A stretch of 64,000 nt of DNA, taken from assembly GCA_937924685.1 (NCBI GenBank), contig CALEVN010000027.1:60205-124204 (forward strand). Reading direction: 5' to 3'. A program made the translations under genes and the position numbers. A model generated the notes under the pieces. The model saw only the letters and a list, made by a program, of their open reading frames with translations, was not told where the DNA came from and did not search any database. The stretch's first letter is position 1. Each line of letters opens with the position of its first letter. Shown here piece by piece: positions 11,619 to 58,127 of the stretch. This DNA is from an uncultured Candidatus Altimarinota bacterium. Lineage in GTDB: Bacteria > Patescibacteriota > Gracilibacteria > BD1-5 > JAGOOR01.

Positions 11619-11638
11619 AAAAGAGTGGTTACTGTACT

Positions 11639-11667: not shown

Positions 11668-11735
11668 ATATTTAACTTATTATTTTTAGGTACTCAAAAA
11701 ATCTCCTTATCTACACTTTTTTCAATAGAAATACC

Positions 11736-13718: not shown

Positions 13719-13728
13719 GAAAATAATT

Positions 13729-14763: not shown

Positions 14764-14794
14764 AAAAGTATATTAAAAATAATTATACCTTTTT

Positions 14795-18312: not shown

Positions 18313-19841
18313 TTCTTTTTGAGCTCGTCGAGTTGTGCCTGGATTTTATCTACCTGAGCGCTTGTTGTTTTGTCATCCTTGAGCCAACGATTGTAGAGGT
18401 CGATAGCAATTGCTTCACGAGTGGCGTCATTCATGACTCCAGCGCCAGCAGCAGTCACACTATCGATTACTTTGAGTTCGAGCTGATATTTTGCGAGAGC
18501 GGCTTTTGTGATAGGGCCAAATATCGCTGTATCTTTATTGCTCATGTACCCTACTTGCTTGAGGATTTTTTGTAATATACGGATACCAGCATTCACTTGA
18601 CCGAGTTTCACAGTTGGTACTTTTTTCAGAGAATCAGCATATTCTTGTTTTTTCTTATTGAGAGCTTCATCACGCTTTTGTTTTGCAGCATCGAGATCAC
18701 GTTCGAGAGCTACAATACTGTCGAGTTTTCCGAGGTATGTATTGTATGTCTCTGTGAGTGTTGTTTCTGTAACTGGACCATAGTAACCAGCACCTGGATC
18801 ATCTGCACCTGTGACTATCTTTTTCTCAAGTTGAAATGCATATATAGCATCGACGAGGCGTTTATTGAAAATCCCATCTATGTCATATTTGAAATAACCG
18901 AGATCTTTGAGTTTTTGTTGGAGCGCTCGAGTATCGTCACTATTGAGGTTACTGGTAGTCGCTGCAGCACTACTAGAAGATGAGCTCGTTGTGTCGGTTG
19001 CAGTAGAATTAACAATGTTCGTATTGTCTGTCTTGTTGAGTGTTCCCGACAGGAGTGCCTTGAGCATGGCACGTGTTTTTGGGCCATAAGTTCCTGCACC
19101 ATCATCCGTCTTTACTTGTACGATGCCGTTTGTTTTTTGGAATTGAAATATAGCCTCTACGAAATCCTCATCAAATATACCATCAATAGGGCCACTATAA
19201 GCATTGAGTCGAGTGAGGAGGTTTTGTACTATTTTTACGTCTGCCTGAGGGCTTACGGCATTTATAGGCATAGTAAATGGATCAAATACTCTCGTTGTTG
19301 ATCCAGAGGCAAGAGGTACTGTTTCATTGTGAGGATTTGTACAATCACTCGGAACATTATCAAAATTTGATGTATCGGGGATAGAAGTATCGTTATTGAA
19401 ATCTATGTAGACTGTCTGAACTCAGAAGTTAATAGCTCTACAGAGACCAGCCTGTCATTTCCCCATATAGATATCGAGACGAGGAAGCTTTGATCCGCTT
19501 GTGATAGCGCCTCCACGATCGAGAACAGTTCCGTGAAACTCAAAATTAATTGGAGTTCCCTTGATAGTGAGTGTTTGTTTTGTGTGAACCCGTGTATTAA
19601 ATGCTATATCACGTGGTGCTGCGACAACTCCAATACGGACTGGTTGTCCAGAGGCTGTATGTGTCCCTTCACCGTTCATTTTTATTTCATCAGCATAGGT
19701 ATCATGTAGATAGAAATCCTGTCATTCTACTGGTGAATAATACGCTGACACGAGATAAAAAGCTCCATCGGCATGTGTGGGAAGTGACCAGAGGGGAACT
19801 GTGAGACTCGCAAGAGTCAAGAGGCTAAAAATGCGACGCAT
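18309..19841 (-). CDS. secreted cell-wall protein: signal peptide, 3D (MltA-like) domain, then four PG_binding_1 repeats
   Basis: ATG 19841. Fragments 19455..19679 and 18309..19271 are in frame, and the gap was hand-translated. Signal peptide: MRRIFSLLTLASLTVPLWSLPTHA. 3D domain: SAYYSPVE-G-QD...GVVAAPRD...LDRGGAI...LDIYMG. Four repeats fit the pattern LQ..L..LGY....IDGIF....V.AI..FQ. TAA at 18309. Confidence 0.8.
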
Positions 19842-19940
19842 AAAAGAAAAAAATTATAACCATATTGTATTCTCTGAGGTTATATGGCAAACGAAAAGTT
19901 ATTGACATAGAAAAGCTTATCTATTAGAGGTTTCTGGCAC

Positions 19941-21046: not shown

Positions 21047-21883
21047 ATGACAACTTTTTCTCTCACTACCGATAAAACTGAGCTCGAAAAGATAGCTCAC
21101 CAGCTTCGTCTCGATGTTCTCGAGATGCTCCGACTTGCTGGCTCTGGCCATATAGGATGACCATTCGGTATGGCGGATATTTTTGCGGCATTGTATTTCT
21201 CATTTCTAAATACAACTCCAGGAAATCCATCTGACGAAAATCGTGATTATTGTCTCCTCTCTAATGGGCATATCTGTCCTATTTATTATGCAGCTTTGGC
21301 TCGTCGTGGATTTTTCCCCATCGAAGAAATGCAAAAACTTCGAAAGATTGATTCACTCCTTCAAGGGCATCCGAAGCTCTCTATTCCTGGTGTAGAAAAT
21401 TCTTCAGGCCCTCTCGGTCATGGTCTTTCTCAGGCAGTGGGTATCGCTCTCGCACTCAGAATGGATAAGAAAAATAATCGTGTCGTGTGTTGCATGTCTG
21501 ATGGTGAACATCAAGAAGGGCAGACATGGGAAGCAGTGATGTCGGCACATAAATGGAACCTCAGTAATCTCATCGCTATCATGGACTGTAATCATCTCCA
21601 GATAGAGGGGACGACAGATGAGATCATGCCTATGGGAAGTCTCGCTGATAAATATCGTGATTTTGGTTGGGAAGTTCGTGAGATAGATGGACATAACATG
21701 GTACAAATCTTGGAGACCCTTGCCTGGGCGGATAAGAATGATAAACCAACCATGATTGTGGCGCACACCACGCTCGGTAAATGAGTATCATTTATGGAAA
21801 ATAATTGGGCTTATCATGACTGGGCAGGGAAGCCAGGTGATGCTGAAAAAGCACTCACAGAGCTCACTACAGCGACGATATAG
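21047..21883 (+). CDS. tkt: transketolase, N-terminal (TPP-binding) subunit of a split enzyme
   Basis: ATG 21047. AGSGHIG-G-PFGMADIF (TGA 21158), LSNGH, GHP, GPLGHGLS, SDGEHQEGQTWEA, HTTLGK-G-VSFME (TGA 21782). TAG at 21881. Confidence 0.9.
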
Positions 21884-21885
21884 AT

Positions 21886-22842
21886 ATGATGAAAAAATTT
21901 TTCATTCTTTTTTTTCTCTCGGTTTCTTTCCCGATTTTTGCTTATTCTCCATCTGCCTCTGTTTTGGAGAAAACCAAGAATCTTTCTGTAAAAATCAATT
22001 CGTATATCAGTTCACAGCAATCAGAACAGAAAACTTCTTTGCTCAAACTCCTCTCTGATACATTACCCATACTACAAGCACGACTCTTCATGACGCACGA
22101 TATAGAGCGTATGTATCTCTTTGAGTACATACGTCGCCATCTGCCTGCTTCGGAAATGATAGATACTTCTGACCTCATCGATGATGATAATCTCTGAGTG
22201 ACTTGGACTCATGCGCCTCGGAATTTCGATATTCTCTATTCACCCTACTCAACACCGACTTTTTCTTCCCTTGATGGAGAGAAAAATTTTTCTACGCTCA
22301 TCAATGGTTCTTATTTTGCACGGACTGAATGATGAAATTATCATGCCGGTCTCCTCTGGCTCGATGGGCAAAGGCAGACTCCTTTTGTTGCAGATGATCC
22401 ACAGCTGACACATATTATCTGTCTCTCTTCGTGAAAAATATCTCTCTGGGAAAATAGTGCCTACATCTCTGAAGATGTCGTCAAGCCATGCACCATAGCA
22501 CTTCAGGCTGGCCCTCTCATATATGATTCTCATAATGGAGATATCCGAGAAAATCTCGAACCAAAAACCTATATTGGTGCTGCTCATGTCCGTACCGTGA
22601 TGACACTCTTTACTCGACCAGATGGTTCCCAAGATCTCTGGTTCCTGACATTTTATAAAAAGATGACACTTGCTCAGGTACGTGATGTCGTGCTTTCGGA
22701 GACTCGTTTTTATGGGAATTACCGAGATGTACAAATCCTCAATCTCGATGGATGAAGCTCTGTGGCATACTTATCCCGCAAATATCCTGAGCTCAATTTT
22801 GGTACCAGTAAAAGATTGCCCGTCGTATTTGGTATAAAATAA
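21886..22842 (+). CDS. secreted phosphodiester glycosidase-like protein (DUF2233/NAGPA family), lying between the two transketolase halves
   Basis: Signal-like N-terminus MMKKFFILFFLSVSFPIFA. Track ORF 21886..22197 was extended through 5 TGAs (hand-translated 22195..22842). INGSYF, ALQAGPLI and LNLD-G-SSVAY fit the NG.FF / QaGP.L / NLDGGGS pattern. TAA at 22840. Confidence 0.65.
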
Positions 22843-27363: not shown

Positions 27364-28350
27364 TTGTTTCCAAAAATTCTCTCACAGTATCTTCGCGAAC
27401 GTCGTGCTCTTCGTCGAGCTCGAATGAAGAGGCTTAGGCTCTCTAATTCTCTTTTTTTGATAGCACTCGTCGCTTTTTTGCCCATTTATCCTGTATTTGG
27501 GTCTTTTCTCTATGATGGATCGAGGAGAGATGCTCTCCGTACAGACATAGATACCTCTACTATTCTTGATACGGTTGATAGCTATGATGAAGAAGAGACT
27601 GCTATATCTCCAGATTCTTCTGCTGAGCCACAGCATGACTGGACGGGGAGGACAACCATCGAGACGTACACGGTTCAGCCAGGTGACACAATCGCTCAAT
27701 TAGCCCTCGATTTTCACCTGACTCATAACACTATTCGCTGGTCAAATGATCTTCCTACTACTTTCTTGAAGGCTGGACAAAAACTCCTCATACCTCCCGC
27801 CGACGGTATCGTCTATACGACAAAAACAGGGGATACCCTTGACGCTATTTCTAAAAAATACAAAGTTCCTGTTCAAAAAATCCAAACAACGAATAATCTC
27901 TGATCTACCCTCGGCGTCGATCAGATGCTCTTCCTTCCGGGTGCACAACAGCCTGTCATAGTTCCGCCAGAATCTCAGGTTCTTGTACGTGGGAAGTTTG
28001 AGCTCAAAGTCATCAATCCTACTGGCGCTGGTTTTGTCCCAGGACAATGTACGTATTTTGTTGCGAAACACTGGCCAGTAAAATGGCGTGGAAATGCTCG
28101 TGCATGGTTTAAAAATGCAAAAGCAGCAGGGTTTAAGACAGGACAAACTGCAAAACCAGGCTCTATTGTCGTCTGGTATGGTCCAGGATACAATCTCACG
28201 TACGGACACGTCGCTATCGTCATGAGTGTCGATGCGAGAGAGGGTACTATGATTGTAAAAGATATGAACTATACTGGCCCATGGAAAATCACGACCCGAG
28301 AAGAAAAAATAAAAAATAAATATATAATCTGATTTATCTACCACCCATAA
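27364..28350 (+). CDS. secreted peptidoglycan hydrolase: Arg-rich N-terminal anchor, 2 LysM domains, C-terminal CHAP amidase/peptidase
   Basis: Fragments 27364..27903 and 27925..28332 are in frame. LysM: YTVQPGDTIAQLA and YTTKTGDTLDAISKKY. CHAP: GQCTYFVAKHW...GNARAW......YGHVAIV. TAA at 28348. TTG 27364 is preferred over ATG 27424 because the Arg-rich N-terminus is mirrored in the paralogue. Confidence 0.8.
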
Positions 28351-28353: not shown

Positions 28354-29535
28354 ATGTCTCGCCTTCAGTTTTCTACTCGTCTGCGTCGTCGTAAACAATT
28401 TCGTCAGAAAACTCTGAACAATATAGTTCTTTTTGTAGTTGCTCTCATACCTATATATCCTGCTTTTGGTTCTTATATGCAGGATTATACAGGTGCTATT
28501 GTGCGAGGTCAGTATGACAAAAACACCATCCTTGATTCTTATGATGATACGACAGGTCAGAGTACGTATGATATACTCAATGTCGTTGATAACTCTTCGC
28601 CCGCTGATACAGGCACTTCTGCTACTTCAATTCCAGTTGCTACTGTACCAACGACACCTTCGGTACCAGAAAAAATCGTGGAAATAGAAAAAGAAGAGAA
28701 GCCTCTCCCTATACCTGTCGACAAGAAGCGTTCTCTCTATATGACACATCTGGTTCAGAAAGGCGATACGCTCAGCACTATTGCTCAAAAATACAACCTC
28801 TCTATCGAAACACTACGTTCCATGAATAACATATCTGGAACACATCTTTCTGTCGGTAAAAAACTTTTAATACCTCGGATTAGCGGCGTGGACTATGTGG
28901 TTCAAAAATGAGATACGCTCAGTACTATCGCTCAAAAATACTGAATTAGTGACTCACAAAATATCCTCATAGCGAACGATATGAGCTCTGGAAAAGTCTT
29001 GAGTGTTGGTCGAAAACTTCTCCTCCCAAATCCAACCAAAGATCCAAACAAAAAAGTAGTCGTAGCTCCTCCTGTGCAGCCTGTTGTGAAGACTAATCCT
29101 GTCTCAAATAAGACAGCACCAGAACAGCGAACGGTAGTCAAAAAAAATGCTCCTAATACACAAAAAACCATATCTTATGGCGGATATTCTCTTGATCTCA
29201 AAGTACCAAATGGTTGCCGTGGATTTGTGTGGGGTAACTGTACTTGTTTTGTCGCGAAATATAAAAATGTAACCTGGCATGGTAATGCGAAAGACTGGCT
29301 CAAAAATGCGAAAAAGCAAGGTGTACCAACCGGTGATTCTCCAAGGCCAGGCGCTATTGTTGTCTATTATGGTCCTGGTTTTCCGCCTGCATATGGCCAC
29401 GTCGGTATTGTCATGGAAGTAGGAGAAGACGATATGGTTATCAAGGATATGAACTATCGAGCACTCAATGAAGTAACAACAAGAAGAGAAAGTTTTGATA
29501 ATCCAGCCATCATAGGATATATTTACGTAGATTAA
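28354..29535 (+). CDS. secreted peptidoglycan hydrolase paralogue: 2 LysM domains plus CHAP
   Basis: Fragments 28354..28911 and 28981..29535 are in frame, with two TGAs in the gap (VVQK-G-DTLSTIAQKY-G-I). CHAP: GNCTCFVAKYK...GNAKDW......YGHVGIV. It shares the N-terminal pattern R-rich...ALIPIYPAFGS with 27364..28350. Confidence 0.8.
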
Positions 29536-29612: not shown

Positions 29613-32600
29613 TTGCTTTTCGTGTTTTCTTTTTTTCAAAAAATAATTGCATGGTTTTTGATAGGGCTTCTCTTCTTTGAGGCTACTTTTCGAGTTCCAT
29701 TTTTACTCCAGGAAGCACAAGCTCTCGAAGCGCATAATCATGAGGATATTGTTTCACTTTTGGTGGAAGAAGATCTCATGAAAAAGATGTCACCTGATAT
29801 TGATACGTATGCGAGACGTATACAATCACAGCTTCCAAATACACGAACTGTCATTCTCACTTATCCAAAAAATGCGCATCCATTTCTGATAGCTTCAGCA
29901 AATGAGAGGCTCTACTTTTCTGGTATTCCAAATCATGGTTCAAAAACTCAGAAACTTGTCGGTACTATATTGATAGGTCATGTTCCTCTCCCCGTTGTTC
30001 ATAAGGATGGTCGTGATTTTCTCTCGATGTATCCTTACACTGATTTTTCTGATCCTCATTTTTTCTGGAATTGGGAAACGAGTCGATATGAATACATAGG
30101 TACAAAACCAGATAAGCCAGAACCAGACATATGGCATTCTGTAATAGACCCAAACTCAGGCGATATCGATCAAGATGTCCAAAAAATACGCGACTTCTTT
30201 GCCCGTGTTTATGAATATGATGCAAAAAAAGGTCGTTATGCTGATGTAGGAAAAAATCCACAAGTGCTCTATATGGATTCTGTACAAGAATCACGAGCTA
30301 TCAGCAAGTGACTTCTCGGGGTCTATGAAAAACTTCGTGTTCCACAACAAGAGCACCTCCTCTATCATCGCTTTACACGTGAATTTGCCCAATACTTCTA
30401 TGAAACTTATTTATCGCTCATGAAGTCAGAGGGTAGTTCTGATGTTGTCCCATTTTCTCAATGGAAAAAACCGACAACTTCTTCTGCTAGTTTTCTCGAC
30501 GATGCTTCGGATATTACGACCAAAGTTTTTGCAGATGAACTTATCATACCGTTTCTAAAAACTATCAATGAGAAATATCTCGGAGATGTAGAGCGATGGA
30601 TACATAATGCAGGCCGGTACTACAATTGATACTCTGATGTCCGTATGGATACTATACCAGAGGTACTTTCTCAAAAAGATGCACTTTCTGGACAGATTCT
30701 CAAAGAGCTCAACGACACTCTCGAAAAAATGGTCGACTCATATGTCGATGCAAATATGGCTATGGATATACCAGTTCTCCTCTATCGTCCTGGCCAGAAG
30801 ACTATTATAGAAAAACAAAATTATGTAAGTGGAGGTAAGACACTGACCCGATCAGTCAGTCGTTCATTTGCATTTACGTATGATAATTATTTTTATGGGA
30901 AAAAAGCGACCGAAATAACAGATGCAAGTGAATGTAGCCTTATTGCTGGTTCAACTTTCTGAGGGTATAATACAAAGACAGAAATCAATCATGGCTATGC
31001 CATGACAAGTGCTACCAAAGATTCAGAGCTTCTCAACGCAGATACTTCTGCAGGGATTGTCTGTAAAAAACCTACTCAATCATACTGGGGATGAAATAGT
31101 CCTATCAATACAAAATATGTCGATGGAGAAATAAAAATAGGAGAACATAGGTATGATGATTTTTCTCTTCCTATACGTGATCTCTCTGCTGCAAAAAAAA
31201 GCACTACACTTCTCGGTAGTCCTCTCGACTGCCTCAGACGGGATCTCATCTTAAAGCCCTATAAGCATACAGGTATCGATGGTACTACTGTGTATCCATG
31301 GCCTGTTGAAACAGGGGGTGCTAAATATTCTTGTGCGACTGACTTTGCATCGACAACACCATATCCTATTTTCCTCGAACCATCCCCAGAGGGGTCTGAA
31401 AATATTTTGACGAATCTCGTGTCATGTCCGCCTGCACCAAATAGTACGACAAATATTTCTCTCCTTTCTCGTACTGGTGGTGCTCTAGCTACGTGTCAAA
31501 CAAACGGTCTCACGGGTACGTATAAGCTCATATCTTCTCTTATCAAACACAGCGATCCATCATCAAAAATATACGGAGCGCAACTCAAGGGTATATCTTC
31601 TCCAAATATTCCTGTTGATGAAGAGCGATATCTCTCATACCTCGACAGAAGTGCCCATGAAGCGCGAGTAAACTATCCGAATCTTTTTGACATATCAGTA
31701 ACGCCGAATGATAGCGACGATGTGATTCTTCAAAAAATAACTACATTTGTTGACAATGCCACATCAAATCTCAAGCCTGGTATAGATTTTCCAGTGTCTC
31801 ATCCGTGGAAAAAACTTATCAAATTTACCGATGTGGCACCAAAATTTTCTGAAGTTCTTCTTGCTAATCAAGATGTGAGAGCCGGGCTTATCGATGCTCT
31901 ACGATGGAAAAGTCTCGATACAGAAGCAAAATATGCACGAGCATTTGATCTCGCTCTCAGCAAGGTAAATACTAATGCTAAACTTATCGTTCCTGATAAA
32001 AAAGATATATATGAGATTTCATATATGGGTGGTACTGGTGATGCTCGTGATTTTGCATTTGGTTTTTCCCCAGAAGATAAAACAGAATTACCAGATTGGT
32101 TTCAAAGTATTCAAAAAAATCAAGAAAATGTCTCAAATCAAAATAGTGGGAATGATTCTGATACAACATCTGAGTTTTCTCTCTCTAATTCGGAAATTGC
32201 TTCTCTTCTTTGAGAGACTTCTTCAGATGGGCAATCAAGTGAAGATGGTTCGACGAATGGAAGTACCGATACTGATTCTGGTAAATCAACATTTGAATGT
32301 GGAGATCCAAATGGTGTCGTAATTTGGGAATGGTTGAGCGCTATTCAGTGCTGGCTCGATAGTCTCCTAAAGACTACCTGGACTACACCAAAAATAGATG
32401 ATATTGGATTTCCTGAACTCCCATCTCTAACGGTGAAATTTGGTGGCGATATTATCTGGACAACGAAGGAAGTACAGGATGTAGACACGACTGATAGTAA
32501 CAAAAATAATGTTATTGATTATGTTGAAAAAAATACAAGTTCTCTCTCCCTGAACAATACAATTTCTGATACGGTTATTGATACGAACCAAACTATTCGT

Positions 32601-35600
32601 GTCGATGCGGCACTCGAATCATCAACAAAAATTATTAACGATGACGCGTCTCAAGTGCAGTTGGTTGTCACAGAATTAGATGATCTCGATACAAAAAAAT
32701 CATATTTTCCAACTGATACAAACTGGGATACAATTCTCGATCAATATATACATATCAGTGGTTCATCCACACTGAAAGATGGGCATGCCATATGGATTCT
32801 TGAAGCGAAAAATAATCACCGATCACGAGTGTATATCGAATCACGTATTTATTCGAGTAAAAATATATACCTTCGTTCTGAGAAGAGTATTATCCTTGTA
32901 GGTCCAGATGTTATACCAGCAACGGTTGTCAGCTCATCTAATGTAACTTCTTCACAGACAATAGAAGCGGGCGATAAAAATGGGCTTAATCTCATACTCT
33001 GAGAAACGAATACTTCTTTTAATAAGGTTGACATAGAAATACGAGATTACATCACTGGTAAAATGTATGTTTCTCTCAAAAATATTCCTGTCACGCAAAA
33101 TAGAGTTCAAATCCTCAGCTCATCTCTTGATGCCATTATTAAACGAGCATGAAAATATACACTTTCACTTCAGTCTGGTGAGTTAGCAGGTGAGACAAAT
33201 TTTACTATTCTTCCAGCAGCTGCAGATCATATTGTAACAGAATGGCAAAGTATTTTACTGAAAGATAAAGCACAGCTATTCACAATAAAGGCGGTTGATA
33301 TATATAACAATAATATTGATATTACTAACTGGGACATGAAGATGACATCATCTCTCGCCCTGAATGTGAGCGGTTTTTCATCTTCATCTTCTCGTGAATT
33401 TCAAGGAAAAATCACTTCTGAAACGCTCAACGTGACACCTACAGAAAGCGGTAATGTGACACTCGATATCACACTTTCTTCTGGTTCTACTACGCTCAAA
33501 ACTTCTCTTTCTCGTCCTGTTCTTTCGGAGGTGAAAATTGTAGCAGATATACAGAATCGTAATTCTATTCAGGTCTGACAGGACATAGTGGTCAATCTTT
33601 CTGTACAACGTGGGGATGGTTCTATTGTGGATACTTGGGATATGCCACTCACATTTGGTATACGAGGTGGCAACGCAAAACTCACACAGACAAAAATAGT
33701 TTTTGATAAATGACGTGCCACGACTCATATCAATACTGGTACAAAATCCGCAACAGCTGAGCTCTATATACAGGATACAAGCTTTGGGGCACTCCTTGGA
33801 AATGCTTTTAGCATACTTCCTGGCGATCCTACCCAACTCTCTCTTGATGGTCCGAGTGTACTCTATGCACGAGAGAATGCTCATGATACTTTGACGCTTC
33901 AGTTGCGTGATAAATATGGTAATTTTACTGATTTGAGATCATATGCCTGGCATATAGAGACTGACCGTACAGGTATTCTCGCTCCTATACAATATCCTAC
34001 CCAAAAAACACTTTGAACTTCTGAAACGCAGTTAACGAGCCTTGGTGTACCAGGAAGGATTTTGTTTCACGTATGGCTCACAAAAGGTGGCCAAAAGACG
34101 ACCATTAATACACTCGAAAATGTTTTTCAATTGAGCGTTCTTCCAGTTATTACAAGTGATGATGCGAGTCATAATACATGGCAGACAGTAACACAGATTC
34201 TGTTGGGTGGTATATTTGGGCAAACCCCTGTTCAATGATATTTTGCATGATCTGCGCTTTTTGCCCCAGAGACAAAAATGCTCACAGTATCAACACTTAT
34301 CGATAATCCAAAAACACCAATCATCACCTTGAACCCATCAGGAAATATTGTGACAGGATCTATCAAATATGGTACTGGCATGGGAGTTAGAATTGAAAGC
34401 TTTCTTGATAATAAGCTTTCATTGGTGGTCTACGATAATCGTCTGGGCGATCTCGTACATATTACTTATCCACAGATACGTTCTGACATTTCGACTACAT
34501 TATGCTCGAAACCTGAAACTGATATCTCCTGTGATCATGACACTCTCGCATTTCTCCCAATAGCTCAGAATACAACTGTAAAAGACGGTGTTGTGTATCA
34601 GAATAATCAATCGCTTTTCGCAGTCCGTGACATATTCAACCTTCCTAACCTTCGATTTACTTTTGTTGAACAAACAGGTTCTTCTCTACAATTTTCTGTT
34701 ACCAAAGATTCCACAACTCTCGGAATTCTCGCACTTCGATGGAAATCCAGAACGCCTTCTGATTCTTCTGACGCAAATACATACAGCCTCTCTATGATGA
34801 CCTCTGGTCTTGAGGCGAAGATGAATTGGAATCAGACAAGCTCGTATGATACCCCCGGTATGGTTGTCTATAATAGAGATGAATCAACTTCATATGTATG
34901 AGGAGCTAATGAAGAATGATTCTCTGCTTATCCTAATAAAGAATGACTGGGTTGGACTGGTGAAAATACCTCACTCCTTCAATTTGCGTCTGGCCAAGAA
35001 TGGTCATCTGCAATGAAGGATACAGCTGATTATCTGACGATCAATCTCGGTGATCCTGTTATAAAGCTCCCTGCTTATAACGTGAATTCGGTTACTGGTT
35101 TTGATCAAACAATAGGTGAGCCTGTCTATATGGGCACTACACCTATTTCTGACATGACATTCCGTGATATAAATAGTGATGGAGCAAAAGACTTGATAGC
35201 TTTTCATGATGATGGTACAGTTGGTACTCGTTTGGAGAGGGGAGATGGTACCTCTATTGATGTTGGTGATTTGTTATCTGTTTCAAATGCTAAAGAGGGG
35301 ATGATTCGTTCATGAGACTTTGTTGGCGACGGGTATTCTGATATTGTTTATGTTGATAATGATGGCGTCTTGAGACTTGTTGTACATACCCAAGATGGCC
35401 CAACTGAGCAGACTATCAAGTATGATACAAATCCTGTTTTGTGATCTATAGAAGAATTAGAAGTCTTTGATATGGATCATGATGGTATCGATGATATCAT
35501 TGTTATGGATAGTCTCGGTTCTCTCTATATATTTTATGGAAAACAGACTGGTGTATTCACACTTCAGTTTATAGAAAATGTGTATGATTTTGTACTTGGA

Positions 35601-38600
35601 TCTAATCCTAAAACTTCTTACTTTACTGGTGCCGTACGCTACGATGGTCCATGATACAAGGATCCTCAAAATATCTCAAAGAGCCAAGACCTCCAGACGC
35701 TCTCTAAGCAGGCTATCATCGAACAGACCCTATTCACTGATATAAGACTTCCAAAAACCACAACAACTGTAACTCCAACTGTCTCCGCAGGAACCAATGT
35801 TTATAATACGCTTAATAATGATGCAAATTGATTTTTGCGTATGTATGATGGTGATGCTACTGCGTTGTGAAATAGTCTTAAAAATGGTTTTGATCAGCTC
35901 CAAAATAATAGTAATGGTTCTCTCAATATCGTTGGCGCAAGTGATAATTATGATACTTTTGCTTTACTTCGAGCACCTTTTATCAATCCAAAAAACTTAC
36001 TTGTTACGAAAAAATATACTTCTCTAGAATCGGGAGATAAGCTTATTTCTGGATCTCCAATAGAGATTACTCTTGAGCTCAAAAATACTTCATCAACTTC
36101 TCTCTCAAATCTGATCGTTCAGGAAAAGATCCCTTCTTTTCTAGAAGTGTCAGATATGAAGTATGATATTTTTCAAGGTACTGTGCAGAATGTCGGTACA
36201 TTTATAGATGGAGGGGATTCACTTATCGCTGACTTAAGGGGTAAAGCTCTCGCACCATGACAGTCTTTTAGAATTGTATACAGAAGTACACTTCGATCGT
36301 TTTCATTTGGTAAGTTTGATGTGGGCTATCTCGAAGATAAAAATGATCCAAATAATAATACCAGTATTCAAAAAGATGCTATCAAAACTATTGATCCAAC
36401 AGCTTCTCGTCTTTCATCTATTCCAGAAAAAGATTTTTACGGACACGATGTTTATGGCGATATACGATTTAATCCAAATGAAACATGTGGAGGGCCGCTG
36501 CTTCTCTGGCGATCGCACAATACATATAGTCGTACGTATCATAAGACGCTTATAGTTCGTGATCTCAAAGATCCCGATAAAGCTGCACTGGCTGCTAATA
36601 AAAATTCTGTTAATGCTCTTAACGCAAAGAGTACATGATCGACATCTACAGGTACTGCATGATCTACTACTCCGAGCACTTCCGATCTGGCTGCAAATGC
36701 TAGTTCTGATCTGGCAACTTGGCAGGCCGACGGAGATAAAGATGGTATACCAGATAGGGGCGATGATGATAGCGGTGATGTATTTGAAGTAAATACTTCT
36801 GGTAATCGTACACAGATAAGTGTAAGTCTAGGTAAGATTGATGATGTTCTTGATCAGATTATCGATGGGGTAAAAGAATTCTTATCATGATTGAGTTGTG
36901 GTTTTGGTGATGCGGGCTGTATATCTATGCCTATTAACTGGGCTGCTAATATTCCAGGAAACACCATTACAGCACTTGGCTTTGCTCTTCCTTGAGCGAA
37001 TCAACCTCCAATTGCTTGTTATGATGATGTTCGTTGTTGATATCCTATTTTCTCAACGCCTACTATATCATGTGCTGCGTGTGAATATGAATGTGCAGAA
37101 TGGCCTCCATGTTCGGAAGGAGCAGGTGGATGATTCGATTACTATGGTGGAAGTGTTGGTACCAATTACGCTCCCCCTGGTTACTATATGCCGGGAGAAG
37201 GTATAAGCACATTCCGCATATTTATTTGAGCAACACTTACTGGTGCCTTGGCTGAGGTGATGTGTTTTGGCGAGAATAATGCTATATGAAATCTTCCAGG
37301 AATGTTCCCAATTAATTTTGATGGAAATTGTATTTTTGCCACTCAGCCCCTGACTCAATGTAGTGATGATGGATCGAGTGATGATCCTCTGGTGACAGAG
37401 TCTGATATTTCTTCTGAGATCAATGATGACAATAGCGGTGATGATGGCAGTGGGGATGGTAGTAATGCTAGTTTCACAAATGCGGATAGCTGTGGTTTTT
37501 ATGATCCTATCAATAGTTATCCACTTGACCTCTCTGCTTCTGCGAGTCAGTATCTCTCTCAGTCCAATGATACTAATGCAAGCAATCTTGAAGCCGCTAT
37601 CTCTAACTATAGTGATATTATTGCCAATCCAGAAGCTTCTACAGATAGCGGACTCTACTTCTCTACATCATCACCTGATACGAGCTATTCTCGTCTCAAT
37701 GGTATACGAGGACTTTCTTTTAATAGTACTGGTTCTGGTACAGGCATGATTCAGTTGTCTCTCAGTGCGACGGATTTAAATCTCCGTAACTTCGGTAAAG
37801 TACTTGATATCAACCTCCGAAGTATTAAAGCTTTCCCAAACTTTATCATGGATTGGTATCACCGTCAGATGGATGAAATTATGGCTAGTATCGGGCATCT
37901 ACCAGATATCAAAATATTCCTTCCAGATCTTTCTTCTCTTGCCGATTCAGGGTGGATGTGATCTTTCGGTTCTGATTTAAAGAATGCAGCTACTAATGGT
38001 TCTTCTCGAGCAACGGCTACTACCTCAGGAACTACTACCTCAGGAACTACTACCTCAGGAACTACTACCTCTAATCAAAGCACGTTAAAAACTGCGAGCA
38101 ATACTATTCGAAATGGATGGAATAGTACATTCTGATTTATCAGCAGTGGCTTTAGTACTGTCGGTAATACTGTAACGAAGGGGCTTGGTTATGTCGACAA
38201 TGCTAAAAATCAGGCGACATCTTTTGTAAAAGAAAAAACTACGGGTATCCAAAATGCATTTGAGTACATCGGCACTCTTCCAATTATTGATGTACATCCA
38301 CAGACTATTAACTTTGAGATTCCATGGGTTGGCAAACAAGAAGCTCAAGCATGGCTTGTCCGAAATCAAGCCGTGCTCGATGCGTGGAAAAATCTCCCTA
38401 AAAATGCTGTTAATAGTGTCAATACAGGGCCTCTGATTAGTAGTATTCAGACAAATATAGAGATCGTCAGGAGTTACATGGATCTTCCAGAAAAACTTCA
38501 AAATCTCTTCTACATAAAAGAGAAAATTCTCTATGGTGTCATACAAAATATTCAAGCAGTTCAGAATCTCATGGGTTGATGGCTCTACAATAATGGGCTT

Positions 38601-41600
38601 CGATTCAAGGCATGGGTCGAGGTATACATTCTTGTGACAAAACTCTGGGATTTGTGGCAGGTATTGGTCGATGTTTTCAATGATTACGAAGCAGAGTGCG
38701 GAGTATGTCGTAACGAACGATGGAATCTCCAGCACTGGTTATGGATAATTATCTCGATGATTATTCCGCCAATTCCAGTTATTCAAATGCCTCGATGGCC
38801 TGATATAGAACTCGATTTTTCTGATATAGATCTCTCGCTCGATATCGCTTATCCGGTCTTTAATTTGTCATTCTATCCAATTAGTCTTCCAGATGCACCA
38901 GTACCAACCATCAGCTGATTCAATGTAAGCCCAATGCCACTCTTGCCACGCCTTCCAGACCTCAATATCGACATAACTATACCAGTGATACAGCTTCCAA
39001 AGCTTCCTGATCTCCCACCTCCACCAAAGATTCCTGAGCTCTCCCAGGTTATTACTATTGTGCTAAAAATCTTTAAGCTCATTGTGCTTATCATGTGTCT
39101 GTATAGAAAAATTCCTCTTTCTCCAGAGTGGTTTGTCGGAACAAAAGTTGCTCATAAGACAGAGCGACAAGGATATCTGCCTTTTGATTTTCTTGATTAT
39201 GGACTACCAACTGTATCTATGGAATGGATAGATGCTATACGTGTCTCTACACATGTGAAACTCAAATACAATATTGACTACATAACTGATGCTATCAAGT
39301 CTGTTCTTGAACCATTTAATAATTTCCCACGAAATCTCTATCGATCTTCTAGTTCTAATTCTTCGAGCGTTAATATCGATATAAAACCAGATACGGGTGT
39401 TCAAGTGAAGAGCACTGCGGATATTTCTGAGCTACCAGACCTCATAGCGTCATTATATAATCCAGATATTGCGCCTTCTGTATCGATTGATATCGCTTCA
39501 GAAAAACTCGGAAATATGGTTTCATCTATGGATATTTCACCAGCAAGAAAGAATCAATTCTTAGCTCTTCTCAAAAATGATAGAGTAGATATGCCAAATA
39601 ATGATGTACAGCAAAAATTCGAAAATCGATTTAATACTATTCATGGCGCTCTCGCAAAAGATATCGAAGAAAATCACGCTATTATAAAGGATATAGCTCT
39701 CTGGAAAGAGGGTGAAAAGAGGCCTGAAGATATAGCATTCATCAAGCAATGATTGCCAAATGTTGCTCATTTAACTGAAGCTAGTTCATCTCCATGATCA
39801 CACTTCCTCTCACTTCGGGCTGATGTGCTTAATCCTCTTGCAAATGTAGTTCAGGATGTTGTTCATCCTATTATCCCTGCTGTTGCAGTGTCTCCTACGC
39901 CAGATATTGTTCCTACTCCAGGCACTGGAAATACTTTTTCAGATAAGGCACCAGATGTATCTGCGACGACCCGCACAAGATGACTCTATGTCACTCAGGG
40001 TACTACGACACAGAGACTCATAGACTACACTGAGGCTCTCGATGGTAAAACAAAAATATACGCAATAGACGATGACAGGGATGGAGACCAGGATGTCTAC
40101 TACTCACTCGGAGATAAGATATATAGAAAAGAAAATCATCTCAAATCACCATCAAAATACTATATTTCTGATGCTCCAAAAATATACAATGTAGCTGATA
40201 TATATAGTGACTTTTTCTGAACAAAAACACAAAGTATAGAACAGATTCCGTATGATGGACAAGTCCATATATCGCAAGGTAATTCGTATGGACGTATAGA
40301 CCTCCGTTTTCTCACAAGATGAGATACGAATCATCTCAGGCTTTTCTTATTTAATTCTCTCCTAAAAAGAAATAAGACAGATGCGCAATCTGTGTTCGAT
40401 ATTTTCCCAAAGAGTACCACGGACAGCAGTAAAAACTCTATACAAACGGTTCCTCATATTATCAGTACTGAATGAAAAACTACTCTTAAAAATAATTCAC
40501 TGTATCGTACTCTTCTTCCGGGTAAAAAATATATAGATGCAGATGGAAAAATACTAAATCTGTCTGATGATTTTGTCATACGAAGTGCACAATCATGATA
40601 TACAAAAGAGACTTCTACAATCCGTGTATCCAAAAATGGTATATCAAAAAACTATGTTCTCCAGGCTGGTCAGCGTATTATTTTTGCTGAAGATAGTAAT
40701 GTGACCGTGATTCGATGATCTCTCTTGCTGTTTGGTTCAAGTACTCATACTCAGTCAATTGATGTCAGTGATCGAGGCATGCCTCTCTTGCCGGGCGATG
40801 AGATAGAAACAGGTGATAATGGTCAGGTGACCTTATGATTCCCAGATGGCACGCAAACTGTTTTGACTCAGCATCAACACTGGTCATCAAGTGAGTATAC
40901 ACCGTGAGTCTGAATCCAAAATATATCTCTCTGAGTTGATCCTCATTGGTATTATGCTTCTCTCGAAGATGCTCGTAGTGGAGAGGATATACGTATGCCA
41001 CAACATACTATCTTTGATGCCTATACCAGACTATCTGACGGTGCTATTGTTGCTCAAATTCCGAGAGAGATATCTCTCGATATAGATAGACCAACTGAGG
41101 TTGATTTTCAACAATATTTCCCGACTGATACTATTTCACAGGTGGAGATTTTTAGACTTCCAAGTTCTGAGTGGAGAAGGGTAGATAATACCAAAATTAC
41201 TTTTGAAATGCAAAAGCAGAAAACCGATATATTAGTCCGTGTCACCAGCAATGGATTTGTTCGTGATTATACAACGAGTCTTGTTGCAAAAATTCCAAAA
41301 CTTGCTATCGATAGCATCGATATAAACAATACTGTTCAGGGTACTCTCTCTGATGCGATCACTTCTCCAATCGGTATACAATCGTTCATTTGAGATAGAA
41401 GTTGGACGCTGAATTCGTGAGCATCAGTAAAAAATACTTCTTTCTCTGCGTCTTTTGGTAATGTACTCCCATCTTTTGATATATCGAATGGCACAACAAA
41501 TCTGGTAAATATAAACCGTTCTACAGGTGGTCTTACCTTGAATCCTGGTGTGAGTATTGTTCCTAATATTATACTTGGTAAGAATATGGGAATTATCCTG

Positions 41601-41957
41601 TCTGATTCACAAAAACAACGCTTACAAATGAGCTATGCCTTTAATAAAGTGAATTACTCTCAGGTTTCGTGAGTGACTGATATCGTGAGTCCATGAATAT
41701 ATATTGTTGGCTCTAATATGCACATGGAACCATCAGCTCTTCTCGATAAAAATCTGGTAGGAGGTGTGTATATAGTAGACACATCATATCGACCACTTCT
41801 TGCTCTCGACGCGAACTGAGTTGTCAGGTATCTCGATACAAATATTCGATGGTCTGCTGTTTCAGACTCTAATAATATCATATTCACACTCAAAACGATC
41901 AATAATAGTGAACTTGGTAAAATCATTCTTCGAGGAGATATGATTACTACCTGGTAG
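29613..41957 (+). CDS. giant (4,114 codon) surface protein: N-terminal signal/anchor, FG-GAP/VCBS-like repeats, DUF11-like domain, TSP3-like Ca-binding motif, Cys-rich module, internal hydrophobic pair
   Basis: Fifteen track ORFs from 29613 to 40995 are all in frame 0 and each ends in TGA. I hand-translated every gap larger than 20 nt (30309-30420, 30960-31290, 32211-32334, 33000-33336, 33576-34278, 34899-35013, 35313-35472, 35652-36321, 36636-37302, 37959-38373, 39750-40995, 41391-41957). There is no TAA/TAG until TAG 41955. The start is TTG 29613 or GTG 29622. Confidence 0.8.
38019..38072 (+). repeat. 15-bp tandem repeat, about 3.5 copies, encoding (TTSGT)n inside the giant ORF
   Basis: actacctcaggaact repeated; translates as ATTSGTTTSGTTTSGTTTS. 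Confidence 0.85.
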
Positions 41958-41969
41958 TTAAAAGAGGTA

Positions 41970-44900
41970 TTATACGTTGGCCGCGATTTTCCTTTTTGTA
42001 TCTATCCTCTGGTCTCAGATATCAAGCCAAACATGGTATTCTCCTGGTGTGCATTTTTCGAGAATATTTTTGATATCCATGAGAACTTCTTTTGCAGTTC
42101 CGAGTGATAGTTTTAGAGTTATATTTTTTTCTTCTATTATGCAGTTATATTTGTTTTGGAGGGAAGGGAAGAGTTGTACGCTATTTTCTTCATCACCAAA
42201 TATGCCTTCGTTTTGCGCAGCTGTTCTGAGATCTGATATCGTCGACCTCTTTACCTGGTCTGCTTCGATAGATATTTCCTTCATTTCTACTTTACAGTTG
42301 AGCCGCCCTTTTACCAGGACTATTTCTCATTCCTTGAAGAGATGTGCGACTTGATTGTATGTTTTTGGAAATACGATAGCGGTGAATTTCCAACCTGTAC
42401 TCGAACACATAACAATGAGCATATTTTCACCTTTTTTTGTTTGAATTTTTCTTATGCTATCAACATAGCCTATGACTTGTACTATGGGCTTTTCTTGCTT
42501 TTCTTTTTTCACCTCTTCTTCGATTGGTGGAGTATCAGAAGTGTCTTTTTCCTCTGCTGAGTTTACCTCGCCATTATCATTCACTTCTGCATCGAGCATT
42601 GGTTCTTCTGTGATTGTTTCTTCCAGTGTTTTTAGGAATTCTTGTACCTTTGCGAGGCCGAGAGATTTTCTCTCTATATAACGCTTGAGTCCATCGAGGG
42701 GGTCACCAGAGATGCTCATACCGATAGCATTTCTCTCTTCTCGGATTTTCTCTTCAAATGTTAAGGGTTGTCCATCTTGGAGTATGAGTCATCCACCATT
42801 ATTTCATGATCCGCCGAGATCAAACATGTCCATCTGTTTTGTACTTGTTTTATGTTCTACTTCACGAAGATATCATGCCATTCGCTCCATATTAGCAAGC
42901 ATGTGGCCACGTTCTCCGAGTGTATCCATCGCTCCACTTTTTATGAGTGCATCGAGCGTTTTTTTATTGATGACGTCAGATCAAGTTCTTTGTACGAAGT
43001 CTTCGAGAGATGTATAGGGTTTCTCTTCACGCCCTGCTAATATTGTTCCGATGGGCCCATCACCAACTCATTTAATTGCTTTGAGTCCGAAACGAATTTT
43101 ACCATTATCAATATAGGTAAAATGTCTGCGAGATTCATTCACATCAGGGACGAGTACTTGGATATTTTTTGCTTTTGCTTCATTAATTTCGAGGACTATA
43201 CGATCTGTATCATCTTCGTCTGATACCATGAGAGCAGTGAGAAATTCGGTAGGGTAGTAGGCCTTGAGGTAGGCAGTTTGATACGCAATCATCGAATAAC
43301 ATGCGGCGTGTGATTTATTGAAACCATAACCTGCAAATGGTTCGATAATATCTGTAAAGATATATGTCGCGAGCTTTTCACTATGTCCCAGTTTTGTCGC
43401 TGCTTCGATAAATTTTCCTTTTTGTTCGTCCATCAGTTCCTTGATTTTTTTACCCATAGCACGGCGGAGAATATCAGCTTCACCAAGAGAAAATCCTGCG
43501 AAGGCTTGGACGATCTGCATGATCTGCTCTTGATAGACAGCGATACCTTGCGTGAGCTGGAGAATTTGCGCGAGAGATTCGTGTGGATATTTTACTTTTT
43601 CTCGACCGTGTTTTCGTTTGATATATGTCGGGATGTAGAGCATCGGTCCTGGTCGGTACAGTGATACCATAACGATGATATCTTCAAAGTTATTTGGTAC
43701 GAGCTCCTGGAGGTAGCGGCGCATACCAGCGGATTCAAATTGAAAAATACCAGTCGTATCACCCTTGGCAAAGACATCAAAGACCTTTTGATCGTCCATC
43801 GGGAGTTTATTGATGTCGATTTTTATACCATGATTATTCTCGATAATTCGGAGTGCTCGGTCGATGATGGTGAGATTTCGGAGACCCAAGAAGTCCATTT
43901 TCAAAAGTCCTAATCCATCGAGAGGGTAGGCAGAGAATTGTGTCACGATGGCAGTATCATCTTTTGGCGGATGCTGAAGTGGACAAAAGTCTGTCATCGG
44001 ACTCGGCGCGATGATAACAGCACAGGCATGGACACCGAGTTGTCGTACAGTTCCTTCGAGTTTCTGAGCATTCGTGATGAGCTTATTATGAAGAGGATTA
44101 TTCTCGATGGTTCTTTTCAGGTCTGGATTTTCTTTGATAGCATCTTCGATAGTGATACCTGGTCGTGCAGGGATAAGCTTCGCAAATTGATTCATCTCTG
44201 CAAAAGGAATACCGAGGGCACGTCCGACATCCTTCACCGCAGCACGAGCGGCGAGTGTACCGAATGTACAAATCTGTCCGACCTGATCATGTCCGTATTT
44301 TTCACGGACGTATTCGATGACACGTCCTCGTCCTTCATCAGAGAAATCGATATCGATATCAGGCATGGAGACACGAGCAGGATTTAAGAATCGTTCAAAG
44401 AGGAGCTGATAGCGGAGAGGATCGATATTGGTGATACCAGAGAGATAGGCGATGATAGCTCCAGCAGCTGATCAGCGTCCAGGTCCAACAGGGATATCGT
44501 GCTCACGTGCCCATCGAATAAAGTCTGCGACGATGACGAAATATCCATCGAATCCCATGAGGTGGACGACAGCCAACTCGTATTCGAGACGATCAAATAT
44601 AGCTCTTTGTTCTTCTCAAAAATTATTATATATATTGTCTTTTTTTGCATTTCTCCATGTTTTTGGAAGTTCGATGAGATCTGCGGGGGAGAGTTCTTTG
44701 AGAGTCGGTATATCTGCTTTTATTTCTTTATGGACGCATTCGATGATTTCTTCATTGGACAGAGTGAAACCATATCTTGCATTGAGTCCTTCGAAACAAG
44801 TCCATCGCAGGAGCCATTCTTGGTCTGTGAGTGTCTCAAAATCTCATGGATATGACTGTTTATACGTTTCTTTTCTGATTTTTTCCTTTTCATTCAGAGC

Positions 44901-45758
44901 ATAGGTTGGTAAGAGAGGTTTCCCGTGAGGAATTTCTATATCTATCATGTCTGCTATTTTCAGTGTGTTTTCACATGCTTCTGGTGCATAAGCAAAGAGT
45001 TCACGCATTTCTTCTGCGGGTCTCAGGGCATAGTTTCCATCAATGAGTGTTTTTCTGTCGGGGTCATCGAGTCTTCGACCGCTTCCTATACACGAGAGAA
45101 AATCTTGTGCTTCCGCATCTTCGATACGTGCATAGTGTACATCATTTGTTCCTACGAGTGGTACACCAGAGAGCTTGCTGAGTTCGACGAGTTTTTGATT
45201 ATAAGCGCCCTGGGATCATCTGTCTGGGTGTTCTCCGATTTCGAGATAGTAATTATCTTTTCCAAAGACTGATTCATAATATCTGATACGTTCAAGGAGA
45301 AAGGCATTGTCTTTCCCAGAAACGACATTTTGAGCAAGTTCACTCGTGAGGTCACCGGAGAGTGCGATAATATCAGATGAGAACTTTTCTAGCGTAGGGA
45401 AGTCGAGTTGAGGTTTACTTCCGACGTTGCCATCGAGATATGCTCGTGTAGTGAGTTGTATGAGATTTTTGTAACCGTTGAAGTTTTTTGCAAGCAATAT
45501 GAGGCTGTACACTTTTGCGTCACGTGAATCGTATTTTTGCCCTTGTTCACAGATAAAAACTTCTACACCGATAATGGGTTTAATTCACTTTTTCTTACAC
45601 AGAAGATAAAATTCAAAAGCTCCATGAAGATTATCTGTATCAGTAATAGCAAGCGCCGGCATACCAAGTTCTTTTGCTCGTACGACAAACGCCTCAGGAT
45701 CGCCGAGACCCTGAAGAAATGAGTAGTGTGTATGGAGATGGAGATGGACAAAAGACAC
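41970..45758 (-). CDS. dnaE: DNA polymerase III alpha subunit
   Basis: GTG 45758. PHP domain: [15 protein letters not shown]...[17 protein letters not shown]...K-G-IKPIIG. GP-G-R-G-SAAG region, [50 protein letters not shown]. Fragments 45216..45512, 43068..44366, 42327..42719 and 42015..42284 share one frame. 12 TGAs in 1,262 codons. TAA at 41970. Confidence 0.93.
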
Positions 45759-45764
45759 CCACAG

Positions 45765-45792
45765 ACTCTATAAAAAAACCCATGAATTGCAA
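45765..45792 (-). promoter_or_regulatory. putative dnaE promoter, near-leaderless
   Basis: On the minus strand: TTGCAA (45792..87), 16-nt spacer, TAGAGT (45770..65), 6 nt, then GTG 45758. Confidence 0.45.
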
Positions 45793-49576: not shown

Positions 49577-49652
49577 GCACTCGTAGCTCAGCTGGAAGAG
49601 TACCGGTCTTCGAAACCGAGGGTCGCAGGTTCGAGCCCTGCCGAGTGCACCA
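49577..49652 (+). tRNA. tRNA-Arg, anticodon UCG, with encoded CCA
   Basis: Hand-folded. Acceptor GCACTCG/CGAGTGC (7 bp). D arm GCTC-AGCTGGAA-GAGT. Anticodon arm CCGGT-CTTCGAA-ACCGA with TCG at positions 34-36. 5-nt variable loop. T arm GCAGG-TTCGAGC-CCTGC. Discriminator A, then CCA. 76 nt. Confidence 0.9.
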
Positions 49653-55222: not shown

Positions 55223-55232
55223 AAAAGAGATA

Positions 55233-58088: not shown

Positions 58089-58127
58089 AAAAAGAAAGGT
58101 TAATTCCTCTTTATTTTCCCATACTTT

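Follow-up and report, generated by a model that had tools for sequence, protein, structure and literature searches.

In a stretch of 64,000 nucleotides of contig CALEVN010000027.1, from an uncultured Candidatus Altimarinota bacterium (this whole stretch is called the window below), positions 29622–41957 are one intact, contiguous gene that is read with UGA as glycine and encodes a giant protein of 4,111 amino acids (aa). The organism is a Candidate Phyla Radiation (CPR) bacterium that uses UGA = Gly (genetic code 25) and belongs to the Gracilibacteria/Peregrinibacteria group. As judged from its sequence, the giant protein adds a new ortholog to a conserved family that already exists but is uncharacterised, and it is probably exported and retained at the cell envelope as a Ca-binding surface fibre for contact with a host or partner cell. 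To our knowledge, no giant protein of Gracilibacteria, Absconditabacteria or Peregrinibacteria has been characterised so far, and the literature open to search yielded no description of the family. A preliminary description of the same DNA had proposed a single contiguous UGA-sense gene for a giant exported surface protein of a CPR bacterium, and this core proposal is supported by the test of the genetic code, the homologs, the intact orthologs and the presence of domains of extracellular type.

A single reading frame with UGA as glycine

The frame is open, without TAA or TAG, from position 29595 to the TAG at 41955, as had been proposed, and the stop that precedes it is the TAG at 29592. Given the base composition of the window, the probability of a TAA/TAG-free run of 4,120 codons arising by chance is ~1e-76; among all frames of the window, the second-longest run of this kind has 1,265 codons. 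Translation from the TTG at 29613 reproduced the 4,114-aa product of the preliminary description, and amino acids are numbered from this codon throughout. Because the N-termini of homologs (MFSFQKIIAW..., MIPFQKIIAW...) align best three codons further on, we prefer the GTG at 29622, which these alignments suggest to be the true start. The number of in-frame TGA codons had been put at roughly 60, which was an overestimate, since we count 51, of which 50 lie downstream of TTG 29613. The standard code (code 11) cuts the frame into 52 pieces, of which 22 have at least 60 aa and 16 at least 100 aa, in agreement with the more than 15 fragments reported earlier.

For the window as a whole, code 11 yields 47 open reading frames (ORFs) of at least 150 aa, 10.7 kilo-amino acids (kaa) in total, and a code in which UGA is a sense codon yields long ORFs that tile the window. 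In dnaE, the next gene downstream, a TGA sits on an invariant Gly, the window reading GPGRxSAAG where the alpha subunit of DNA polymerase III (Pol III) of Thermus has GPGRGSAAG (PDB 2hpi, E 1e-233), and two further TGA sites of dnaE also aligned to Gly of the Thermus protein. At the 50 TGA sites of the giant gene, homologs carry Gly in 36% and Trp in 11% of cases; the corresponding values are 37% and 9% at Gly sites encoded by GGN, and true Trp sites show 48% Trp. When only homologs from standard-code genomes are considered, Gly is found at the TGA sites in 82 cases and Trp in none. The residual Trp at these sites stems from homologs to which code 4 was applied when they entered the databases. 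The dnaE alignment and the TGA-site profile therefore identify code 25, and the same two lines of evidence rule out code 4 (UGA = Trp). TGA accounts for 17% of the Gly codons in the giant gene and for 3–36% in neighbouring genes. A tRNA-Gly(UCA) was not found in the 64-kb window, the sole tRNA of which is tRNA-Arg(TCG) (49577–49652, + strand).

Translation with code 4 is seen in the database copies P0001–P0007, P0011–P0024 and P0044–P0046 of the family. In P0021–P0024 and P0044–P0046, Trp is up to 5.6–6.9% and Gly down to 0.9–1.3%, a shift which implies that some lineages use UGA far more than any other codon for Gly. Two public sequences labelled "uncultured Candidatus Peribacteria bacterium" (L008, CAYVZT010000001.1; L009, OZ246415.1) have 32–37 in-frame TGA codons in the longest open segment alone, which points to code 25 there, and their taxonomic label or its assumed code looks inconsistent.

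One might suppose that the long frame is an assembly chimera, a pseudogene, a string of standard-code genes or a frame with UGA read as Trp, in that standard-code gene callers give many short ORFs here, many database homologs carry Trp at UGA, and the frame is broken in the two closest genomes. Against such explanations stand the chance probability given above, the alignment of UGA to Gly and not to Trp, and the existence of collinear full-length homologs, among them uninterrupted standard-code ORFs. When the contigs of three standard-code members (P0008, P0030, P0033) are translated, each gives an unbroken ORF (13.8–16.3 kb), and a read-through fusion of separate genes is therefore ruled out. 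Intact ORFs of 4,020–4,281 aa with 39–78 in-frame TGA codons are also present in seven other, independent GTDB assemblies. The two closest public genomes are L008 and L009 (~78% nucleotide identity; OZ246415.1 is a complete chromosome of 1,050,320 bp), and we rejected the idea that the gene is split in them: a 100-N gap (~9360–9460 in L008, ~9306–9406 in L009) lies inside a (GTGTTTS)n / (SGTGTT)n linker at the same place as a tandem repeat of the window gene (38017–38071), and the frame resumes beyond it. This repeat, whose unit of 15 nt is a multiple of three, is the sole spot where misassembly is plausible, and it is likely to vary in copy number. As far as in silico evidence goes, the view that this is not one gene is refuted, and we give it next to no credence.

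A conserved family and its domain map

A search of 5.8 billion proteins returned 46 relatives of 3.7–5.4 kaa. Seven of these are full-length and collinear with the window protein at 39–50% identity, with query coverage of up to 100% in a single alignment, and P0002, P0005, P0006 and P0007 align with 99–100% of the query in one high-scoring segment pair at 39–44% identity. Over 4,100 aa, the close relatives show a mean identity of 44% with 5% gaps. The window protein thus has the same N-terminal domain (N-domain), FG-GAP block, Cys-rich module, helical/Pro-rich module and size class as an unnamed family of Gracilibacteria and Peregrinibacteria. The family members that use the standard code differ in being longer (5.0–6.1 kaa), in carrying SLH and thrombospondin type 3 (TSP3) repeats and in lying in a type IV pilus cluster.

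In an exhaustive search of 1.84 billion cluster representatives, a hidden Markov model of the helical/Pro-rich module, which is the hallmark of the family, matched 611 representatives, 361 of them at E ≤ 1e-30. All full-length matches are 3.6–6.1 kaa long with the module at 60–75% of their length, and the short matches are fragments. A scan of the GTDB species genomes gave 19 loci, one per genome. A profile search with the N-domain in a second large database found only fragments of 200–880 aa of the same gene, cut at the first UGA; it gave no new architectures and no N-domain outside the giant family. Ortholog fragments lie on contigs of up to 949 kb, where, for example, the gene appears as a 202-aa "protein". 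Since the database entries are truncated at UGA in this way, standard-code annotation conceals the family. Its members (for example MCD5380636.1, MDD2487531.1 and CSB08_00530) come from Candidatus Gracilibacteria and Peregrinibacteria and go only by the names "hypothetical protein", "VCBS repeat-containing protein", "DUF11 domain-containing protein" and "TIGR01451 family". This is an annotation problem, in that many of the public copies have been either broken up by the standard code or wrongly given Trp at UGA, and the family goes largely unseen.

The hydrophobic N-terminus noted in the preliminary description is present and conserved (Kyte–Doolittle hydropathy, KD, of 2.06; hydrophobic in 29 of 46 homologs), and a conserved small-x-small motif (AQA|LE) at aa 35–37 is a candidate signal-peptidase site. 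In the N-domain that follows, the motifs PYTDF, WH and GR are invariant (alignment A3) and read PYTDF, IWHSVI and HNAGRY in the window protein. The AlphaFold 2 (AF2) model of this domain in the closest homolog has a predicted local distance difference test score (pLDDT) of 85–94 over the first ~200 aa. The pattern ILIGHVPLP...PYTDF...IWHSVI had prompted us to consider a gingipain/C25-like (clan CD) domain; this lead was rejected, with no match to Pfam or PDB sequences and no C25 structure in the Foldseek top 50 (best E 0.12). Beyond the N-domain, BLAST blocks at aa 640–920 are conserved as far as the distant homologs.

For the predicted Ig-like stalk, the match to Invasin_D3 (E 2.6e-5, 25 bits) lies under the cutoff of 33, and homologs match Big_1, Invasin_D3 or GH2_C5 at the equivalent place. 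FG-GAP/VCBS-like repeats had been seen by eye, and PF13517 (FG-GAP_3) indeed passes its cutoff of 26.9 with 29.0 bits at aa 1902–1964, in two stretches; DxDxDG motifs are found at aa 1852, 1953, 2373 and 3486. A DUF11-like fold, also suggested earlier, stands only in part: homologs are labelled DUF11/TIGR01451 by NCBI and JGI, but PF01345 gives 13.5 bits (E 0.094) where the cutoff is 24.6. The stretch WQADGDKDGIPD occurs at 36720–36779 just as it had been reported, and TSP3_bac (PF18884) is recorded in homologs. The Cys-rich module, likewise picked out in advance, holds 11 Cys in aa 2429–2583 and has no match in Pfam. In the protein as a whole there are 26 Cys, clustered in modules. Linkers rich in Ser, Thr, Gly and Asp (aa 2600–2850) come next, ahead of the hallmark module.

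The hallmark module consists, in order, of a long helical bundle, a CxxC motif (aa 3029/3032), a hydrophobic/Pro segment, a beta-hairpin, an (LPxLP)n...LPPPPK stretch, an amphipathic hydrophobic helix and PEW...TER. Its invariant features are C, P(K/R)WPD, LPxLPPPPK, Cys 3162, PEW and TER, and its Pro-rich stretch is extended, ~80 aa long. Structure models were made from the closest homolog, P0001, which carries some Trp-for-Gly mistranslation at UGA, and not from the window protein; the AF2 model of the module (pLDDT 71.8) has a ~70-residue helix in the bundle and a 23-residue hydrophobic helix that bears the invariant Cys. The internal hydrophobic pair of the preliminary description is present (aa 3039–3060 and 3146–3164), but the two segments are not conserved as transmembrane (TM) helices in the family. 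Segment 1 has a family-wide median KD of 1.26, with 8 of 45 members at 1.6 or above, and conserved Pro, Lys and Asp residues. Segment 2 is borderline and amphipathic (median KD 1.60, 21 of 44 at 1.6 or above), with a conserved internal Lys and the invariant Cys. An SLH domain lies C-terminal to the module in a standard-code member, which would place both flanks of the module outside the cell.

After the hydrophobic pair there are 950 residues, the number that had been estimated, and they include a conserved block at aa 3456–3530 of the C-terminal region. The chain ends with ...ILRGDMITTW. Self-BLAST of the giant protein revealed no internal repeats, and Tandem Repeats Finder (TRF) detected only the 15-nt x 3.7 linker repeat in the gene. 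The earlier remark that most of the sequence matched nothing that could be named also holds, as the two most conserved domains are without a sequence or fold match.

Rates of change are uneven along the protein. Measured against seven close homologs, identity is 60–67% in the N-domain, 57% in the FG-GAP region, 56–59% in the Cys-rich module and 63–69% in the hallmark module; it is 28–37% in the stalk, 23–44% in the linkers and 27–47% in the C-terminal region. Relative to the closest genome, L008, the N-domain is 91% identical, DnaE 90% and the C-terminal 800 aa 69%, and in genomes further out the values are ~65% for the N-domain, ~88% (83–88%) for DnaE and ~44% (39–45%) for the C-terminal part. 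By these comparisons, the N-domain and the helical/Pro-rich module are slow-evolving, and the Ig stalk, the linkers and the C-terminal ~800 aa are fast-evolving.

Possible roles at the cell envelope

Several features give the protein an extracellular character, namely the FG-GAP match over its cutoff, the Invasin_D3/Big_1 and SLH domains of homologs, the DxDxDG motifs, the clustered Cys and the N-terminal hydrophobic segment. We consider it reasonably probable that the protein is an exported, Ca-binding fibre, held at the envelope, with which the cell contacts its host or a partner cell. Such a protein would be exported by Sec and could be retained at the envelope through an uncleaved N-terminal anchor; alternative means of retention would be the hydrophobic helices of the hallmark module, which are TM-grade only in the clade of the window, or, in the standard-code relatives, the SLH domains. 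The protein would extend outwards as a non-repetitive fibre stabilised by Ca2+ and disulfides. The variable distal parts (the stalk and the C-terminal region) might recognise the surface of the host or partner cell, the fast-evolving C-terminal end being a candidate recognition surface, and the conserved domains might serve in anchoring or assembly.

The two genes upstream of the giant gene encode peptidoglycan hydrolases with LysM and CHAP domains, which may open peptidoglycan locally, either in the cell's own wall for the passage of a 452-kDa protein or in the host wall at the contact site. The second LysM-CHAP gene ends 60–85 nt ahead of the start of the giant ORF, and its ortholog (48–86% aa identity) lies directly 5' of the giant gene in 10 of the 10 clade loci with a visible upstream region. 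The adjacency is kept even in two clade loci in which dnaE is not a neighbour. In related loci, the giant gene also has an ortholog of the first gene upstream of it.

A number of observations weigh against a host-contact fibre or leave parts of it uncertain. The N-domain has no sequence match in Pfam, NCBIfam or the PDB, and Foldseek gave only generic Rossmann-like folds (E ≥ 0.12); for the hallmark module, searches of PDB sequences, Pfam and NCBIfam gave no match either, and the best fold match has an E of 3.8. The structure models rest on P0001, and with a pLDDT of ~72 for the module they are of only moderate confidence. The giant protein has no LPXTG, lipobox, RTX (GGxGxD) or prepilin motif, and the hydrophobic pair as a conserved TM hairpin had to be rejected family-wide, being TM-grade only in the window's own clade. 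The synteny of the CHAP gene with the giant gene is absent in more distant Gracilibacteria. Lastly, strong conservation over the full length, the lack of internal repeats and orthologs at one locus per genome would be unusual in host-specific adhesins and are matched equally well by a structural role.

This last point makes a purely structural role in the envelope a serious rival, given the orthology, collinearity and non-repetitiveness of the family. The protein would then be a housekeeping scaffold, a wall-spanning or S-layer-associated strut for integrity, shape or division, with a role like that of staphylococcal Ebh. Consistent with this, the orthologs are collinear and occupy a single locus in each genome throughout a class-level clade, with 44% mean identity and 5% gaps among close relatives and no internal repeats, the N-domain is conserved to the same degree as DnaE (91% vs. 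90%), and standard-code members carry SLH domains. The neighbours across loci would also suit such a role, as they belong to cell-wall and housekeeping functions: LysM-CHAP hydrolases, PBP1, LytR-Cps2A-Psr, SecDF and GroES/EL, with PBP1, LytR-Cps2A-Psr (LCP) and SecDF all near the giant gene in L001. However, change in the Ig stalk and the C-terminal ~800 aa is much faster than in housekeeping genes, which is typical of exposed surfaces driven by interaction, and modules of FG-GAP, Ig and TSP3 type typically serve to bind ligands. On balance we think a scaffold that does nothing else rather unlikely, and the scaffold and host-contact roles are not mutually exclusive.

The fibre for host or partner contact resembles known systems to differing degrees. 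Classical giant adhesins (the RTX/Bap type, such as SiiE, LapA and MpIBP, and Gram-positive ones, namely Ebh and a 7,651-aa adhesin of Mobiluncus) are exported, acidic, Ca-binding proteins with Ig-like domains that reach out from the envelope and mediate contact (PMC6272769, PMC5550230, PMC10619420). The window protein shares with them its great size, acidity, Ca-binding motifs and Ig-like domains, all of which are known here from sequence. Unlike RTX/Bap, Ebh and LPXTG adhesins, however, it has no tandem domain arrays or internal repeats, and it also differs from classical adhesins in having no RTX or type I secretion signal, no LPXTG and no YSIRK motif. Classical adhesins vary in copy number, whereas this family is orthologous and collinear across a deep clade and includes two domains without a recognised fold. 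The protein is thus most likely a non-repetitive variant of the giant-adhesin theme. The preliminary description had called it a giant adhesin-like protein, of which the giant, exported, surface-type character stands; "adhesin-like" is still a conjecture, as the protein is non-repetitive, conserved and apparently single-copy, unlike classical giant adhesins. With integrin-alpha-type FG-GAP/VCBS proteins (PF13517) it shares canonical DxDxDG Ca loops, although the FG-GAP block makes up only ~6% of the window protein.

Giant proteins are known from other small-celled lineages as well. The predatory CPR bacterium Vampirococcus lugosii has giant membrane or surface proteins, the largest of which, VAMP_16_20, has 4,163 aa and is annotated as "hypothetical protein" (PMC8080830), and giant surface proteins have also been noted in Gracilibacteria (PMC6851277) and Peribacteria (PMC4736985). 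Compared by description only, the Vampirococcus giants and the window protein are alike in size class, in coming from related lineages that use an alternative code, in a predicted envelope localisation and in domains of integrin/DUF11 type. In the Vampirococcus paper the giants are treated collectively, without a family definition or a domain map (PMC8080830). The giants of Omnitrophota, which are ultra-small and possibly predatory bacteria, are mostly extracellular and linked to cell-wall degradation (bioRxiv 10.1101/2023.11.21.568195). With 10–85 kaa, numerous TM regions and SecA-like domains they are unlike the window protein, which shows none of these features, and no homology was detected.

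A more far-reaching possibility is that the protein breaches membranes and serves in feeding, with the hallmark module as a latent insertion element, like those in toxin translocation, that enters the host envelope and helps to form a conduit through which the epibiont or predator extracts cytoplasm, and with the CHAP hydrolases clearing the host wall. What speaks for it is that the most conserved part of the family (63–69% identity, 611 representatives) unites a very long helix, a CxxC motif, two hydrophobic/amphipathic segments with conserved Lys and an invariant Cys, and a Pro-rich stretch of ~80 aa in a module of no known fold, that its segments are too polar in most members for constitutive TM helices, and that peptidoglycan hydrolase genes adjoin the giant gene. 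In addition, cultured relatives feed by sucking out the cytoplasm of the host (PMC8080830). The comparison is nevertheless an architectural analogy only, drawn from toxin biology, and the module has no sequence or structural likeness to any translocation, pore-forming or fusion domain. It also sits at 60–75% of the chain and not at a free end, and the invariant Cys and CxxC would equally fit a disulfide-stapled, folded ectodomain. We regard a breaching device as improbable, and, by the same analogy, the idea that the module inserts into membranes conditionally and that the giant protein and the LysM-CHAP hydrolases form the core apparatus of host-envelope breach and of a feeding junction in epibionts of Gracilibacteria/Absconditabacteria type, a new class of cell-to-cell penetration machinery, is a long shot.

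What had been an anonymous giant ORF is now a defined target, with ~600 clusters, a domain map, two domains without a recognised fold and a partnership with LysM-CHAP. If the protein were part of a host-contact or feeding organelle, it would offer a natural handle for antibodies, for labelling in cryo-electron tomography and for the prediction of host range in uncultured bacteria.

Gene neighbourhood and other features of the window

The coordinates of the giant gene, its domains and its immediate neighbours are collected in Table 1.

Table 1. Features of the giant gene and its surroundings (window coordinates; aa numbered from TTG 29613).
Feature	Position	Strand	Remarks
LysM x2 + CHAP peptidoglycan hydrolase gene 1	27424..28350	+	N-terminal TM/signal; Pfam LysM 69 bits, CHAP 59 bits
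LysM x2 + CHAP peptidoglycan hydrolase gene 2	28354..29535	+	Pfam LysM 95 bits, CHAP 57 bits
Sigma-70-like promoter match TTGATA-17-TATATT	29495..29523	+	10/12; consensus match only
Giant ORF, code 25	29622..41957	+	4,111 aa from GTG 29622; TAG 41955-41957; 452 kDa; pI 4.9
Alternative starts of giant ORF	TTG 29613, TTG 29601	+	TTG 29613 = 4,114 aa
Putative N-terminal export signal	29622..29723	+	Hydrophobic core aa 11-22; conserved TFRVPF
Family-specific N-domain, aa ~30-480	29700..31052	+	Alpha/beta sandwich + helical subdomain
Conserved Cys-containing region, aa 480-930	31050..32402	+	Cys at 484-628 and 896/913
Variable Ig-like (Big_1/invasin-D3-type) stalk, aa ~1190-1520	33180..34172	+	
FG-GAP/VCBS repeat region with DxDxDG loops, aa ~1775-2010	34935..35642	+	Conserved family-wide
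DUF11/TIGR01451-like beta-sandwich candidate, aa ~2145-2212	36045..36248	+	Sub-threshold
Thrombospondin-type-3-like Ca-binding Asp motif, aa 2370-2389	36720..36779	+	Sequence WQADGDKDGIPDRGDDDSGD
Conserved Cys-rich module, aa 2426-2586	36888..37370	+	56-59% identity
Perfect 15-nt x 3.7 tandem repeat, (TTSGT)n linker	38017..38071	+	TRF score 110
Family hallmark module, aa ~2860-3240	38190..39332	+	Alignments A1/A2
Hydrophobic segment 1, aa 3039-3060	38727..38792	+	KD 1.64 in window
Hydrophobic segment 2, aa 3146-3164	39048..39104	+	KD 2.51 in window
Beta-rich, fast-evolving C-terminal ~865 aa, aa 3250-4114	39360..41954	+	
Conserved FG-GAP-like Ca motif AIDDDRDGDQD, aa 3486	40068-40094	+	Within C-terminal region
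dnaE (Pol III alpha), convergent	41970..45767	-	Syntenic in 12 related loci

The stop codons of the giant gene and dnaE are 12 nt apart (41955–41972), and the convergent arrangement is kept in the 12 related loci. No intrinsic terminator was detected between these stops, nor was a + strand terminator between the second LysM-CHAP gene and the giant ORF, and promoter-like sites in the region are no more numerous than in shuffled sequences.

In the standard-code loci L003 and L006, the giant gene is part of a conserved cluster, with PilN/O-like genes, PilB, PilC and a true prepilin (AFTLIELLIV) upstream of it. Four secreted proteins are encoded consecutively after the giant gene and have ~192, 214, 620 and 345 aa (23687–27793 in L006, 26311–30435 in L003); those of L006 have a Cys 2–4 residues from the C-terminus (CTSK, ECK, YCE, CQ). 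The four secreted proteins could be disulfide-linked partners. The pilus-cluster genes of L006 have no homologs in the window or in the code-25 loci. A giant type IV pilin or a PilY1/PilC-like tip adhesin was considered for the window protein and rejected, with no Pfam match, no prepilin motif and no pilus genes in the window.

The rest of the window abounds in wall enzymes, with an M23 peptidase, a YkuD transpeptidase and a PG_binding_1 protein. The M23 peptidase, encoded at 60385–62049 on the - strand, carries three fused SLH domains, and the organism thus evidently uses SLH-type wall anchoring. Two further candidate surface proteins are encoded on the same strand, a 977-aa Cys-rich repeat protein (52358–55291; DUF4215, "CTG.. 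V.. Y.C.G" units) whose C-terminus bears a TM anchor and a 964-aa protein with no detectable domains (55233–58127). At the other end of the window, positions 725–14772 (- strand) hold eight consecutive ORFs of 260–800 aa, which are mostly without a Pfam match and several of which are coiled-coil or His/Pro-rich; among the ORFs of this part, the one at 11736–13748 (- strand) ends in a YkuD L,D-transpeptidase domain, and the one at 13729–14772 (- strand) combines an SH3_3 domain with six EKKPEGG repeats in tandem. Three PG_binding_1 domains are present in the protein encoded at 18309–19853 (- strand), and the product of 21805–22842 (+ strand) has a weak NAGPA-like match.

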